From Candidatus Heimdallarchaeota archaeon (GTDB lineage: Archaea > Asgardarchaeota > Heimdallarchaeia > JABLTI01): 18,334 bases of DNA. This document shows positions 1,797 through 12,427 of the stretch, one piece after another. A model generated the notes under the pieces. The model was not told the origin of the DNA. It did not search any database and worked only from the letters and a program-made list of their open reading frames with translations. Location: assembly GCA_030614005.1 (NCBI GenBank), contig JAUWKS010000063.1:1-18334 (forward strand). The letters run 5' to 3'. Made by a program: the position numbers and the translations under genes. Positions within the stretch are counted from its first letter, which is position 1. Every line of letters starts with the position of its first letter.

Positions 1797-2531
1797 TTAT
1801 TTTTTACTTTCTGTTTCTTCTTCCTCTACTAAAATAACTCCACCAGTTTTTCCTATACGGTATTCTTTTCCTCTAAACATATCTATGAATGGACCAATGT
1901 ATTTTGGAAAGATTGCTATAGAAATTCCAATGGTAAATAATCCAAGTAAAAAGCCTCCGCTCAAACCAGCTAGATGTATCCAAGGTGGATAGATTGGAAG
2001 AAAGAAAGCAACGGGGATGCCAACGAACAGTGCCATAAATTGTGCTGGTCTAACTGTTCGCGTTATTAATCCGAAAATCATCATACTGACAATAAACACT
2101 AATAATAATATTGGATTTGTTATAACCAAAAAACTGACAATGACAGCTATACCACGACCTCCTTTAAATCCAAGCCATGGACAATAATTGTGCCCTAAGA
2201 TTACAGCTATAGCAACTGAAATATAAATAATCTTATGCCAAGAAAATTCATAATATTCACCTGCACCAACAAGTGGATCATTATTAAAGGGAATAATCAT
2301 TGCTGCTAAGATACAAACCAATCCCTTTGAATAGTCTAGAAAACCTGCAAGTAATCCCCATCCAAAGCCAACCTGCATCATGGCATTTAGTCCGCCAACG
2401 TTTTTCATTCCACTTTCCCGTAAATCTATACCACTTCTCCATTTAGTAATCAGATAAGAGAATGGAATTGAACCAATCAAATATGCTATTATTGGACAAA
2501 TAATTACCCATATCCAATCAATAAAAGTCAT
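1797..2531 (-). CDS. plsY: PlsY-family (glycerol-3-phosphate acyltransferase-like) membrane protein with non-canonical active-site residues
   Basis: YLIGSIPF, G-x-x-N-x-G-x-x-N, DYSKG, GHNYCPWLGFKGGRGIA and the C-terminal GKE match the PlsY pattern; motif 1 Ser/Arg and motif 3 His/Asn appear substituted. Confidence 0.85.
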   Translation of the reverse strand: MTFIDWIWVIICPIIAYLIGSIPFSYLITKWRSGIDLRESGMKNVGGLNAMMQVGFGWGLLAGFLDYSKGLVCILAAMIIPFNNDPLVGAGEYYEFSWHKIIYISVAIAVILGHNYCPWLGFKGGRGIAVIVSFLVITNPILLLVFIVSMMIFGLITRTVRPAQFMALFVGIPVAFFLPIYPPWIHLAGLSGGFLLGLFTIGISIAIFPKYIGPFIDMFRGKEYRIGKTGGVILVEEEETESKK

Positions 2532-5692: not shown

Positions 5693-6355
5693 CCAGATGC
5701 AATGTTCAATCCAGTATTAACGGCAATGGCATTTACAGTTTCCGCTGATTGGCGACAAAGAGGAACTTCTTTTTGGAAAGATAGCCTAGGAGATAGTGTA
5801 GCTATTGAATCGCTCAATATTGTAGATAAACCACATGATCTTTCAGCTGGATCAGGTATTCGTTCTTTTGACTCTGAAGGAAATCCGACAAAAGATATTG
5901 AAATAATTAAAGATGGTGTGCTACAAACTTTTCTACATAATCAACGCACGGCTAATAAAGAAAAGCTTGAACCAACTGGAAATACTTTTAGATCAATGGG
6001 CGGGCAACCAAGCTTTACTCAACCACCAGCAAATATTTTCCCAAATTCTCTTTGGGTGTTACCTGGTGAAATTCCTGAGGATGAATTGATAAAAGATACA
6101 AAGCAAGGAATAATTATACATAATTTTCAAGGAACAGTTCGTAACCAAAATGGTATTTTCTCTGGAATTGCAAAAGGAGCCTATCTAATAGAAAATGGGG
6201 AAATAACTAAACCGGTAACAGGTATTTCAATTTCAGGAAATGTCTTTGAACTACTAAAAAATATTCAAGGAATTGGCAAAGAACTACATTTAACAAACGC
6301 CTATGCGTTAACACCTATGATGAAATTTACCGGTATAAAAGTCTCTACTAAATAA
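5693..6355 (+). pseudogene. PmbA/TldE-like protein, C-terminal domain only (5'-truncated or stand-alone)
   Basis: SFDSEG, IIKDGVLQTFLH, TGN, GDFS-like GIFSG and ISISGNVFELLKNI match the PmbA/TldD C-domain; no HExxGH; only 217 aa against about 440; in-frame TAA TAG TGA at 5684-5692 precedes PDAM. Confidence 0.75.
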
Positions 6356-7824: not shown

Positions 7825-8103
7825 CTAATATCTCAACAAATACTTGTTCTTCTCCCAACTCGTAACTTGTAATCGATATTCATCCCATTCCCTTGATTTT
7901 GCAAGAATATAGGATTCGTTGTGAGGATTCTCAAAAGTATTTTTGATCAAATTTGAGGAGCGAATATTATTTGTTGCCTCCCACAAACTTGATGGCAGAT
8001 GTTCTACATGTAAATCATTTAGTTTTTGTTCATCCATTCTGTAAAGATTTTCTTGTCTAGGTGGCGGGATAGTTAGATTTTGTTTGATGCCTTCATAGAA
8101 CAA
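7825..8103 (-). pseudogene. glnA: Glutamine synthetase type I C-terminal remnant
   Basis: EGIK..PPP..ENLY.M...LPSSL.EA...AKSREWDEYRLQVTSWEKNKY matches the GS-I C-terminus; only about 90 aa; the upstream frame is unrelated and closes with TAA at 8146-8148; catalytic core absent. Confidence 0.8.
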
Positions 8104-10666: not shown

Positions 10667-11704
10667 TCAAATAATTATAACTATAATTATTCCACCAATA
10701 GTTAGCAAAGTGCCTATAATTATTTTCCAGTCAACTCTTTCTTTCAAAAAGAGAATTGAAAGAGGAGTAGCTATCAAAGGTCCGGAAGCAGCGATTGCTG
10801 CAGTAGTGGATGCCTCTATATTTTTAATTGCTAATAGATAAATGATATTTGCCACGACTAAACCTAGAAGAGCAGAGATTGCTACAAAAGAGATATTTTT
10901 CCAAGTAAATTTGCTTTTATTCTTTCCTCTATTAGTGCTTAAGAAAATTACTAATGAGATAGGCACTAAGAAAGCCATTCGTGCACCATTCAATGTTACA
11001 ATGTTGACATCAGTTTGTTGTAATCCATATTTTATCAAAGCTGTTCCAGTAGCCCAAGTTACAGATGAAATAATTGACAGAACAATGCCCAAAACTAATT
11101 TGCTCTTAAATAGAGGGGGGTTTTGGTTTCTAGTATCAATTTCTGGGTTACTAATTTTAGTTTCTATTTCAACAATTTTAGTGTCTATTGTGCCTTCGCT
11201 TATAGCGTTCTCATTTTTGGAAGCATCCAATATTGGTTCTTTGCTTTTTGAATTATCACCATTAACTTTAGAGAGAGAGATAAAAACTATTCCAATAATT
11301 ACTACTGCTATTCCCAGTAATTTTAGCCACTCAAAACTTACTTCGGGAAAAAAGATTACTTCAAAGATATATGTTAACAAAGGATAAGTCATAGCTATCG
11401 GGTAAGCTTTTGAAACACCTATTAATTGGAGACTTGCGAAATAAAGGAGATTGCCAATGATAATTCCCATTATTGCTGCAGAAATAAGAGGCAATAATGC
11501 TTTCCAACCAATTGTGAACATCAACATGAAATCACCTATTGCAGATACAATAATTAAAAAGGATATACTTGAAACGATTGTTTGAATAAGTAACAAACCA
11601 GAAGGTTTCAAATCCTTGCCTTGTGCTTTAATTATTACAGTAACAATGCCTGAAAGAAGCATATTTCCTATTGCTGCAATAACACCTATGGTTTGGGGAT
11701 CCAA
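10667..11704 (-). CDS. EamA/DMT family transporter (two 5-TM EamA domains)
   Basis: 10 TM helices; LIGVSKAYPIAMTYPLLT and IEASTTAAIAASGPLIATPLSILFLKERV are EamA signatures; about 55-aa polar linker. Confidence 0.9.
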   Translation of the reverse strand: MDPQTIGVIAAIGNMLLSGIVTVIIKAQGKDLKPSGLLLIQTIVSSISFLIIVSAIGDFMLMFTIGWKALLPLISAAIMGIIIGNLLYFASLQLIGVSKAYPIAMTYPLLTYIFEVIFFPEVSFEWLKLLGIAVVIIGIVFISLSKVNGDNSKSKEPILDASKNENAISEGTIDTKIVEIETKISNPEIDTRNQNPPLFKSKLVLGIVLSIISSVTWATGTALIKYGLQQTDVNIVTLNGARMAFLVPISLVIFLSTNRGKNKSKFTWKNISFVAISALLGLVVANIIYLLAIKNIEASTTAAIAASGPLIATPLSILFLKERVDWKIIIGTLLTIGGIIIVIII

Positions 11705-11847
11705 ATTCTATTCACGTAATCTTCAAATTAAAAATCATTTATGAACTCTTGTGTGTGTATACTAATGAGCGATTTTCCTTCTTTTACTGTACTTTATCAG
11801 AGGATTTTTATTTGATGGTAGAAACTTTCATTTGTCTAAAAAAATAA

Positions 11848-12099
11848 GTGATGAAGATTATGAGCGACAAATTTGAATTCGATGAAGATACAAAGTGCAT
11901 TTATGAGATTCTCAAAAAAGAAAATGATATTACGTCTCGCAGAGTTTTGGAGCTCGCTTCCTCCGAGGAATATATTGAAATTTGTTCTGGTTGTGCATCA
12001 GGTGATACCTTCCTCCGAGCAATTAAGAAAATGGAAAAAGCCGGTTTAGTTAAGTCATCTTTGGGGAAAGGTGGTTATAGATGGCATTTAAATGAATAA
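11848..12099 (+). CDS. Small winged-helix protein with C-x28-CxxC motif (paralogue 1)
   Basis: IYEILK...RRVLELA...RAIKKMEKAGLV...GYRW has a wHTH pattern; gapless alignment to the next ORF. Start may be ATG 11851 or 11860. Confidence 0.75.
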   Translation: MMKIMSDKFEFDEDTKCIYEILKKENDITSRRVLELASSEEYIEICSGCASGDTFLRAIKKMEKAGLVKSSLGKGGYRWHLNE

Positions 12100-12130
12100 T
12101 TTGTAGCGCAATGTACTAGAGCTGTATCTA

Positions 12131-12427
12131 ATGACAGACGTTGATAAAACAAATAATCAATACAATAATATAGATCCAGAACTCAAAGAATTATTTAATT
12201 CACAATCTAAAAAAGAGATTTTATGTGTTTATTCTATTTTGAAAAAGGAAAAAACACTTTCAACAAAAAAACTAGTAGAAATCGCTCTTTCTCAAGAATT
12301 TAATCATTATTGTAAAGGCTGTGCTGCAGCAGACAATGTATACAGAGCGGTCAAAAAACTTCAAGAAAAGGGTTTTGTTTTATGTCATATGAGTAAGGAA
12401 GGGTATATTTGGAAATTCATAAAATAA
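12131..12427 (+). CDS. Small winged-helix protein with C-x28-CxxC motif (paralogue 2)
   Basis: VYSILK...KKLVEIA...RAVKKLQEKGFV...GYIW; 26/63 identities to paralogue 1 by hand alignment. Confidence 0.75.
   Translation: MTDVDKTNNQYNNIDPELKELFNSQSKKEILCVYSILKKEKTLSTKKLVEIALSQEFNHYCKGCAAADNVYRAVKKLQEKGFVLCHMSKEGYIWKFIK

Follow-up and report, generated by a model that had tools for sequence, protein, structure and literature searches.

Type II cysteine desulfurases such as SufS need, to our knowledge, a dedicated acceptor. In Bacillus, the zinc-dependent sulfur acceptor of SufS is SufU, whose zinc site is formed by three cysteines and an aspartate. Another small protein, IscX (YfhJ), is often acidic, has a winged-helix-like fold, is encoded with a cysteine desulfurase, and binds the enzyme rather than DNA; as far as we know, it contains no conserved cysteines and partners the type I enzyme IscS. 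Winged helices also act as iron-sulfur (Fe-S) sensors: IscR, NsrR, and CymR (Rrf2 family), as well as SufR, are encoded at the head of, or divergently from, cysteine-desulfurase or Fe-S assembly genes and use three Cys and one His, Asp, or Glu residue to bind a cluster that signals the Fe-S status. In Rrf2 proteins, which are ~140 to 220 amino acids (aa) long, the Cys ligands follow the winged helix-turn-helix (wHTH) domain and lie beside a long dimerization helix, while Thermococcales SurR is a two-domain protein of ~230 aa. Here, we analyze two adjacent open reading frames (ORFs), A and B, that encode small winged-helix proteins with three conserved cysteines (Cys3) on an Asgard archaeal contig (JAUWKS010000063.1; its whole 18,334-nt stretch is called the window below). 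The two proteins belong to an undescribed archaeal family of minimal winged helices with three invariant Cys in helix 1 and an enlarged helix 2–helix 3 loop. The dominant and deepest gene partner of this family, which we named wH3C, is a SufS-type (type II) cysteine desulfurase.

Below, the genus of the source genome (G000; Thorarchaeota in protein names) is referred to as the host genus, and f1, f31, and similar codes denote Asgard families. The window is AT-rich (31 to 37% GC), and the two genes and their motifs are located as follows.

11848 to 12099, plus strand: ORF A, Cys3 winged-helix protein, 83 aa from the GTG codon at 11848 or 79 aa from the ATG codon at 11860.

11896 to 11994, plus strand: Cys3 motif of A, with C17 (11896–11898) in helix 1 and C46 (11983–11985) and C49 (11992–11994) in the helix 2–helix 3 loop.

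12100 to 12130, plus strand: A-B spacer of 31 nt; the A-then-B order is found in nine of the nine gene-carrying genomes of the host genus.

12131 to 12427, plus strand: ORF B, paralogous Cys3 winged-helix protein, 98 aa.

12224 to 12322, plus strand: Cys3 motif of B, with C32 (12224–12226), C61 (12311–12313), and C64 (12320–12322).

The ATG codon at 11860 is the more likely start of ORF A since orthologues begin with MSDKF, MSSHF, or MTENF at this position. The two ORFs are probably cotranscribed. An earlier reading of this DNA (the original prediction) described them as co-oriented tandem paralogues 31 nt apart, and BLASTP confirmed this relationship: 26 of 63 aligned positions are identical, without gaps, at an E value of 5e-21, which is far beyond chance. 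The predicted sequence features, i.e., a Cys in helix 1, a CxGC before helix 3, an Asp at Cys+4, and a GYxW wing, are present in both proteins: C17, C46-S-G-C49, D53 (located at the start of helix 3, just after the Cys3 motif), and G76-Y-R-W79 in A, and C32, C61-K-G-C64, D68, and G91-Y-I-W94 in B. Residues R57, K60, and K61 of helix 3 as well as K74 are also kept in both paralogues of the host genus. ORF B additionally has an N-terminal extension of ~25 aa, modeled with low confidence, and an extra cysteine, C84; its net charge across the aligned region is +8.

An AlphaFold2 model of ORF A based on a 16-sequence alignment reached a mean pLDDT (predicted local distance difference test) score of 85. 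It consists of a helix at residues 13 to 25, a short strand, a helix at 30 to 37, a 14-residue loop, a helix at 52 to 64, and wing strands at 68 to 73 and 76 to 81. Because of this order of elements, C17 is predicted to lie in helix 1, and C46 and C49 in the enlarged turn of the helix-turn-helix (HTH). The model of ORF B has the same fold, with a pLDDT of 78. Judging by these models, both proteins are canonical winged helices, with the cysteines placed as had been expected from the primary structure. Since the first half of helix 1 is close to where helix 3 begins in canonical wHTH topology, it is plausible that C17, C46, and C49 form a single three-thiolate site. The domain carries no extra dimerization element, and the protein ends at the wing. 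Structural comparisons (Foldseek and a search against representatives) retrieved only generic winged helices, including those of Zur, MecI, MarR, Fur, ArsR, TFE, Cdc6, and histone H1 (Z scores up to 10.7), with no subfamily prominent; no analog of the Cys3 site as a metal site was found among the solved structures matched in these searches.

Members of wH3C are recognized by a winged helix of ~75 aa, a helix-1 Cys, a CxxC located 25 to 30 residues further on and before helix 3, and a G-[YF]-x-W wing. Both A and B have all these features and are detected by the wH3C profile at E values of 1e-28 to 1e-29. No Pfam or NCBIfam model matched the family above its cut-off; the best scores were 15.4 bits for HTH_24 and 15.7 bits for Rrf2 (cut-off of 30), and the other weak subthreshold matches were to TrmB and PadR. 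Full-text searches of the literature retrieved no description of a wH3C protein. The suggestion that the pair represents a new family is thus upheld. Word-seeded searches returned close orthologues only, while a HMMER search of 1.84 billion cluster representatives yielded 60 clusters (at 50% identity) with E values of 1e-3 or better.

Nearly all of the 76 aligned family sequences retain the three Cys and the wing Trp, down to ~25% identity, and conservation of the cysteines thus extends well beyond the 59% divergence between A and B from which their functional importance had been argued. The spacing between the first Cys and the CxxC is x28 in 38 sequences and ranges from x25 to x30 in the rest; x28 is the spacing of the Asgard set. 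Of the C-x28-CxxC-x3-D motif proposed for the pair, the Cys part therefore holds across the family, but the Asp is invariant only among Thorarchaeota orthologues of A and B. Across the family, its position is occupied by D, S, N, T, I, V, or G. Although D, E, or H is found at +4 or +5 in 55 of 73 wH3C sequences, we rejected the Asp as a family-wide fourth ligand. Some of the residues at its position (D, S, T, and N) are also those that typically cap the N terminus of a helix.

The wH3C profile matched 145 of 399 Asgard genomes, almost always once per genome. The gene is near-universal, and almost always single-copy, in families f1 to f5 and f30; when three families including f31, the source of almost all matches listed, were tallied jointly, 85 of 89 genomes had a match. 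In family f20, the profile matched none of 135 genomes. A search with the patterns of alignment A1 found no viral relatives, even though a feature-based viral cluster is listed in the Atlas.

Every locus examined in families f3, f30, and f31 (more than 25 in the last) has the wH3C gene directly upstream of a gene for a 410- to 425-aa class-V aminotransferase (Aminotran_5, E values of 1e-103 to 1e-119). Both genes share one strand, and they either overlap or are no more than ~25 nt apart. According to NCBIfam, the enzyme belongs to the SufS family, its TIGR01979 scores of 427 to 440 bits being just below the cut-off of 475. The "in-frame TAG" seen in several wH3C matches is the stop codon of wH3C itself, which is in frame with sufS, and was discarded as a separate feature. 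One f5 genome has wH3C and a SufS-like gene in divergent orientation, 90 nt apart; in another f5 genome, no such gene is present beside wH3C. Close SufS orthologues (E values below 1e-130) occur in the wH3C-carrying families f1, f2, f3, f30, and f31. Since kin are not independent, we count this co-occurrence as about five observations. Adjacency of the two genes is seen in f3, f30, f31, and the DPANN fusions described below, but not in f1, f2, or f4. The original prediction missed the sufS partnership because it is located outside the window. In the SufS-coupled lineages, helix 3 of wH3C is neutral or acidic (e.g., DTFVVAANQLVEQG), and the proteins are net negative. Family f5 seems to have a second, lineage-specific gene partner, an overlapping ORF of 131 to 132 aa that follows wH3C (L051:5631–6029, minus strand; L071:3568–3963, plus strand); when the L051 copy was scanned, a faint match to PAC4, a proteasome assembly chaperone, was found (E value of 0.005).

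The link to SufS recurs in a different architecture. Twenty-odd of the 60 wH3C representatives are longer proteins with wH3C at the C terminus. In DPANN archaea and Methanosarcinales, wH3C is fused to HxsC-like radical S-adenosylmethionine (radical-SAM) or pseudo-radical-SAM proteins. Among the fusions scanned, the radical-SAM core is intact in four (Pfam Radical_SAM E values of 1e-16 to 1e-24; CX3CX2C motif); in NCBIfam, these four resemble HxsC most, at scores below its cut-off. In others, just the C-terminal half is kept, and it has a four-Cys C...CX2CX5C motif. In metagenome-assembled genomes (MAGs) of an Iainarchaeum, another DPANN archaeon, and a member of Methanosarcinales, the stop codon of the fused gene overlaps the start of a gene for a 409- to 416-aa SufS-family protein. 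Because the fusions stand directly ahead of SufS, the wH3C-SufS link recurs in very distant archaea. The fusion-sufS pairs lie within clusters of several HxsC-like radical-SAM genes.

These clusters are an undescribed variant of the His-Xaa-Ser system. They combine three to four HxsC-like radical-SAM genes with a pseudo-radical-SAM–wH3C fusion (L067:4120–10404, and also L066, L068, and L069, from DPANN and Methanosarcinales MAGs), and an HxsD-like gene (44.7 bits versus a cut-off of 50) is also present; L067 is the cluster that was scanned in full. A SufS-family desulfurase is encoded in the L066, L067, and L069 clusters, and none was seen in the L068 stretch that was read.

In the host genus, wH3C was moved from sufS to a position beside an EamA-family transporter gene and was duplicated, after which B diverged fast. 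Within the order, the A-B tandem pair was found in 9 of 10 genomes of the host genus, the tenth genome being 69% complete. Conservation of the pair thus holds for this genus but not for other Asgard families, in which the gene is nearly always single. In a maximum-likelihood tree, all A and B sequences of the host genus form one clade (support of 100/99) separate from all other families, and the ORF B branch measures 1.94 substitutions per site. ORF A has evolved slowly and is the copy nearer to the single-copy orthologues. The clade and the long B branch point to a genus-specific tandem duplication in which B is the fast-evolving derived copy. In one host-genus genome, a second A-type copy (G003:C2:22824–23063) lies at a contig end and adjoins another EamA gene; this copy belongs to a second pair that the assembly truncated, or else it reflects strain heterogeneity (5% contamination).

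The SufS orthologue of the source genome is encoded on contig C5 (22835–24070) and is 54% identical to the f3 enzyme. There is no wH3C gene upstream of it, and the gene pair has therefore been separated in the host genus. Searches of the source genome (90% complete) revealed no match to SufE, to SUFBD (SUFBD_core), or to Rrf2, and its sole NifU_N gene is located on contig C81, ~0.6 kb from an IscS-like match. Therefore, the source genome has a type II SufS without a known acceptor. Its Fe-S assembly set looks minimal.

Overall, A and B probably belong to sulfur or Fe-S handling and are probably not a dedicated regulator of the neighboring transporter. As to the function of the family, we tentatively favor wH3C being a Cys3 metal- or persulfide-binding partner of SufS, a reading whose probability we put a little short of even. 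The three thiolates, often together with a nearby Asp, Glu, or His, would form one site that holds a metal or Fe-S center or accepts persulfide made by SufS. The protein would contact SufS directly, as a sulfur acceptor, carrier, or modulator, and would be functionally similar to SufU, SufE, or IscX despite its different fold. The fused domain of DPANN may tether this function to radical-SAM enzymes, and in the host genus, A and B may still serve the SufS encoded on contig C5, possibly as an acidic-basic heteromer. We favor this reading on the following grounds: wH3C and sufS are coupled start to stop; close SufS orthologues occur in wH3C-carrying families; the fusion partners are enzymes requiring Fe-S clusters or sulfur; the type II SufS of the source genome has no known acceptor; helix 3 is nonbasic and the net charge negative in the SufS-coupled lineages; the three Cys are invariant across wH3C, with no fixed fourth ligand; and a dimerization module is absent.

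Several observations weigh against a role as SufS partner. Genes for acceptors (sufE, sufU, csdE, and iscU) usually follow the desulfurase gene, and those for regulators (iscR, cymR, and sufR) precede it; wH3C precedes sufS and thus occupies a regulator-like position. Families f4 and f5 retain wH3C without sufS alongside. A simple persulfide acceptor would need fewer than three invariant Cys. The top structural matches are DNA-binding domains (Zur, MecI, MarR, Fur, and ArsR, with Z scores of 9 to 10.7). Last, the arrangement in the host genus is typical of regulators: helix 3 has the conserved residues R57, K60, and K61, the net charge of B is strongly positive, and a transporter gene lies divergently beside the pair.

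In a second reading, less probable in our estimate but a serious contender, wH3C is a transcription factor that senses Fe-S clusters, persulfide, or metal, and the Cys3 site in or beside the HTH switches DNA binding when it is loaded or oxidized. Its ancestral role would be to autoregulate the wH3C-sufS operon, on the model of IscR-iscS, CymR-yrvO, and SufR-suf. In the host genus, A and B, perhaps as a heterodimer, would control themselves and the divergent EamA gene, as the original prediction proposed. A heterodimer would be compatible with the joint retention of A and B in all nine gene-carrying genomes of the host genus. In addition to the canonical wHTH fold and the nature of the top structural matches, this reading is favored by the placement of wH3C at the head of its pair with sufS in three Asgard families and its divergence from a SufS-like gene in f5, by the retention of R57, K60, K61, and K74 in both A and B, and by the wing, which is basic family-wide (mean charge of +2, with K or R common at three columns). 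The subthreshold matches to Rrf2, HTH_24, TrmB, and PadR agree with it weakly, and the pseudo-radical-SAM fusions with a four-Cys cluster motif could be one-component sensors. The divergent synteny with EamA throughout the host genus also fits; the features in question are listed below.

10667 to 11704, minus strand: EamA/DMT-family transporter gene (Pfam EamA, E value of 8.5e-36), divergent from ORF A.

11705 to 11847, no strand assigned: divergent intergenic region of 143 nt, containing two blocks conserved across the host genus in an alignment of 11 loci.

11740 to 11750: conserved block TATGAACTCTT, ~35 nt from the EamA start.

11802 to 11816: conserved block GGATTTTTATTTGAT, TATA-like, upstream of ORF A.

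An EamA gene that is 48 to 87% identical is the divergent neighbor in every host-genus genome searched with tblastn. EamA is absent beside wH3C in the loci of other families. The link is thus confined to one genus, while elsewhere the deep and repeated partner is the SufS-type desulfurase; the EamA synteny is that of close relatives and is not independent evidence of regulation.

The two blocks of the intergenic region are best read as BRE (B recognition element)/TATA promoter elements. No operator was found in the EamA-A spacers (11 loci), in the regions upstream of wH3C-sufS (~30 loci), or upstream of sufS in 10 host-genus genomes. Blocks conserved in upstream regions (TnTGAAyTCTT, GGATTT(T/A)(T/A)ATTT, CGAAGnyTTCwTATT, and ATAGAAAGCTTTTTCA) can all be read as a purine-rich BRE followed by a TATA element. 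There was no shared palindrome linking the EamA-A spacer with the sufS upstream regions in the aligned loci. Scanning genomes for such blocks was not informative: a 9-mer, too short a motif for this purpose, gave 131 and 126 matches on the two strands, and a 14-mer gave about one per genome. A 14-nt block upstream of wH3C-sufS in five f31 genomes was found only at the genome's own operon in three of them; of the remaining two, one had a single additional site, located inside an ORF, and the other had no site.

Besides the lack of a palindromic operator, the promoter-like character of the conserved blocks, and the rarity of the 14-nt block beyond its own operon, a sensor-regulator is disfavored by the nonbasic helix 3 of most SufS-coupled members and by the lack of a dimerization module. 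Fusion to apparently active radical-SAM enzymes, with intact CX3CX2C motifs, would be unusual for a transcription-factor domain, and the start-stop overlap with sufS persists in very distant archaea. Together, the missing operator, the BRE/TATA-like blocks, the charge of helix 3 in SufS-coupled lineages, and the radical-SAM fusions weaken the case for the proposed DNA-binding regulator of EamA. The sensor-regulator and SufS-partner readings are not exclusive, since DNA binding could be a later role that the host-genus pair took on once it was separated from sufS.

A third explanation, which we consider unlikely, is that wH3C is a winged helix stabilized by structural zinc that binds RNA, the ribosome, or another macromolecule, with Cys3 serving only to staple the helix 2–helix 3 loop, and that it is a remote relative of the N-terminal domain of eS10 and plectin. 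eS10 is a eukaryotic ribosomal protein. When the wH3C profile was compared to all Protein Data Bank (PDB) sequences, the 17 best matches were eS10 (best E value of 0.0012). The alignment runs from end to end, and the long helix 2–helix 3 connector, the helix 3 pattern, and the wing Trp are shared. Alignment of wH3C with the eS10 alignment by hhalign gave a probability of 87% over 73 columns, compared to 0.1 to 54% for 18 TrmB or MarR winged helices of the source genome and 0.4% for an ArsR-type protein used as controls; by itself, the 87% value is not decisive. In the Foldseek search, eS10 ranked 16th. These comparisons weakly suggest that eS10 is the closest sequence relative of wH3C among proteins of solved structure. 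However, eS10 lacks all three wH3C cysteines, and in the reverse search, PF03501 matched no wH3C gene in the 399 Asgard genomes at E values of 0.01 or better. A PF03501 match was present in 1 of 28 wH3C members, with an E value of 0.047, and did not reach the Pfam cut-off. Since the reverse search was negative, we did not accept membership in the eS10 family (PF03501) and retain the similarity as a lead. Kinship to eS10 also leaves the coupling to sufS and the radical-SAM fusions unexplained. If confirmed, the similarity would provide a prokaryotic root for a ribosomal protein thought to be specific to eukaryotes.

Separately from wH3C, Asgard ORFs of 187 to 195 aa in f31 (G376:C69:76232–76363, G374:C33:4922–5053, and similar ones) score 25 to 26 bits against S10_plectin (cut-off of 26.9), and the match covers the helix 3 and wing part.

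It is highly improbable that A and B are spurious or decaying ORFs without function: both are short and AT-rich, and B evolves fast, but intact orthologues are found in 9 of 10 host-genus genomes, the family extends over 145 of 399 Asgard genomes and 60 clusters, the Cys and Trp residues are invariant, and the fold predictions are confident.

Returning to wH3C as a partner of SufS, a more far-reaching account is possible, although we regard it as less likely than not. The family may represent a new class of type II cysteine desulfurase partner with a winged-helix fold, serving archaea in place of SufE and SufU by accepting persulfide or assembling clusters on Cys3; it would have been reused as a docking or delivery domain on DPANN radical-SAM enzymes and duplicated as an acidic-basic pair in the host genus, and it may also be the closest prokaryotic relative of eS10. 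No known acceptor was found beside the Asgard and DPANN SufS genes examined, and wH3C, being encoded with SufS, is an obvious candidate for the missing component. If the protein is a regulator instead, it would represent a new design in which the helix-turn-helix itself houses an Fe-S or thiol sensor. Both outcomes would inform our view of Fe-S and sulfur trafficking in the archaeal lineage closest to eukaryotes and in the genome-reduced DPANN. As wH3C has no Pfam or NCBIfam model, the family can be defined now.

Three other genes of the window deserve mention. The ORF at 7825–8103 (minus strand, 92 aa) matches nothing but the final 83 positions of Gln-synt_C, the catalytic domain of glutamine synthetase (262–344 of 344, E value of 6.5e-15), and looks like a gene remnant. 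At 5702–6355 (plus strand), a 217-aa ORF consists of the PmbA/TldD metallopeptidase C-terminal domain alone (E value of 1e-58); the N-terminal domains are missing, and the space upstream is occupied by a gene for a 936-aa FtsX-like permease on the opposite strand. The gene at 1797–2531 (minus strand) encodes a PlsY-type glycerol-3-phosphate acyltransferase (PF02660, E value of 9e-32), a bacterial-type lipid enzyme in an Asgard genome.

Compared to the known Fe-S and redox-sensing wHTH proteins, wH3C has a distinct Cys arrangement, in agreement with the original prediction, and the tests for membership in Rrf2, FeoC, and ArsR/SmtB were all negative. Like IscR, NsrR, CymR, and SufR, it is a winged helix encoded at the head of, or divergently from, sufS. 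However, the similarity to Rrf2 (PF02082) is limited to 15.7 bits versus a cut-off of 30 and to residues 56 to 78 in helix 3 and the wing, with weak matches in 2 of 28 family members. In addition, the wH3C cysteines are located in helix 1 and the HTH turn, there is no dimerization helix, and the proteins are only 75 to 100 aa long. FeoC was not matched in Pfam at E values up to 10, and the Cys-rich wing of FeoC has no counterpart: the wing of A contains no Cys, and that of B contains a single nonconserved one (C84).

Thiolates inside or next to the HTH, able to act on the recognition helix, are shared with the alpha3 (CXC) site of ArsR/SmtB and the CxxC of SurR. In wH3C, however, one cysteine is in helix 1 and the CxxC is in the loop that precedes helix 3, as opposed to a CXC in a helix; there is no HTH_5 match, and the hhalign probability against the ArsR-type protein is the 0.4% given above.

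Among partners of desulfurases, IscX resembles wH3C in being a small winged helix encoded with the enzyme, but wH3C has conserved cysteines, and no sequence similarity to IscX was detected. Compared to SufU, SufE, and CsdE, several features differ. The predicted fold of wH3C is a winged helix rather than the NifU_N or SufE fold, Pfam finds no match to either NifU_N (SufU/IscU) or SufE, the fourth ligand is not fixed, and the gene stands before sufS, not after it. Yet, like these acceptors, wH3C is small and genetically coupled to a type II SufS to which no other acceptor is linked, and, like SufU, it combines three conserved Cys with a nearby Asp in many of its members.

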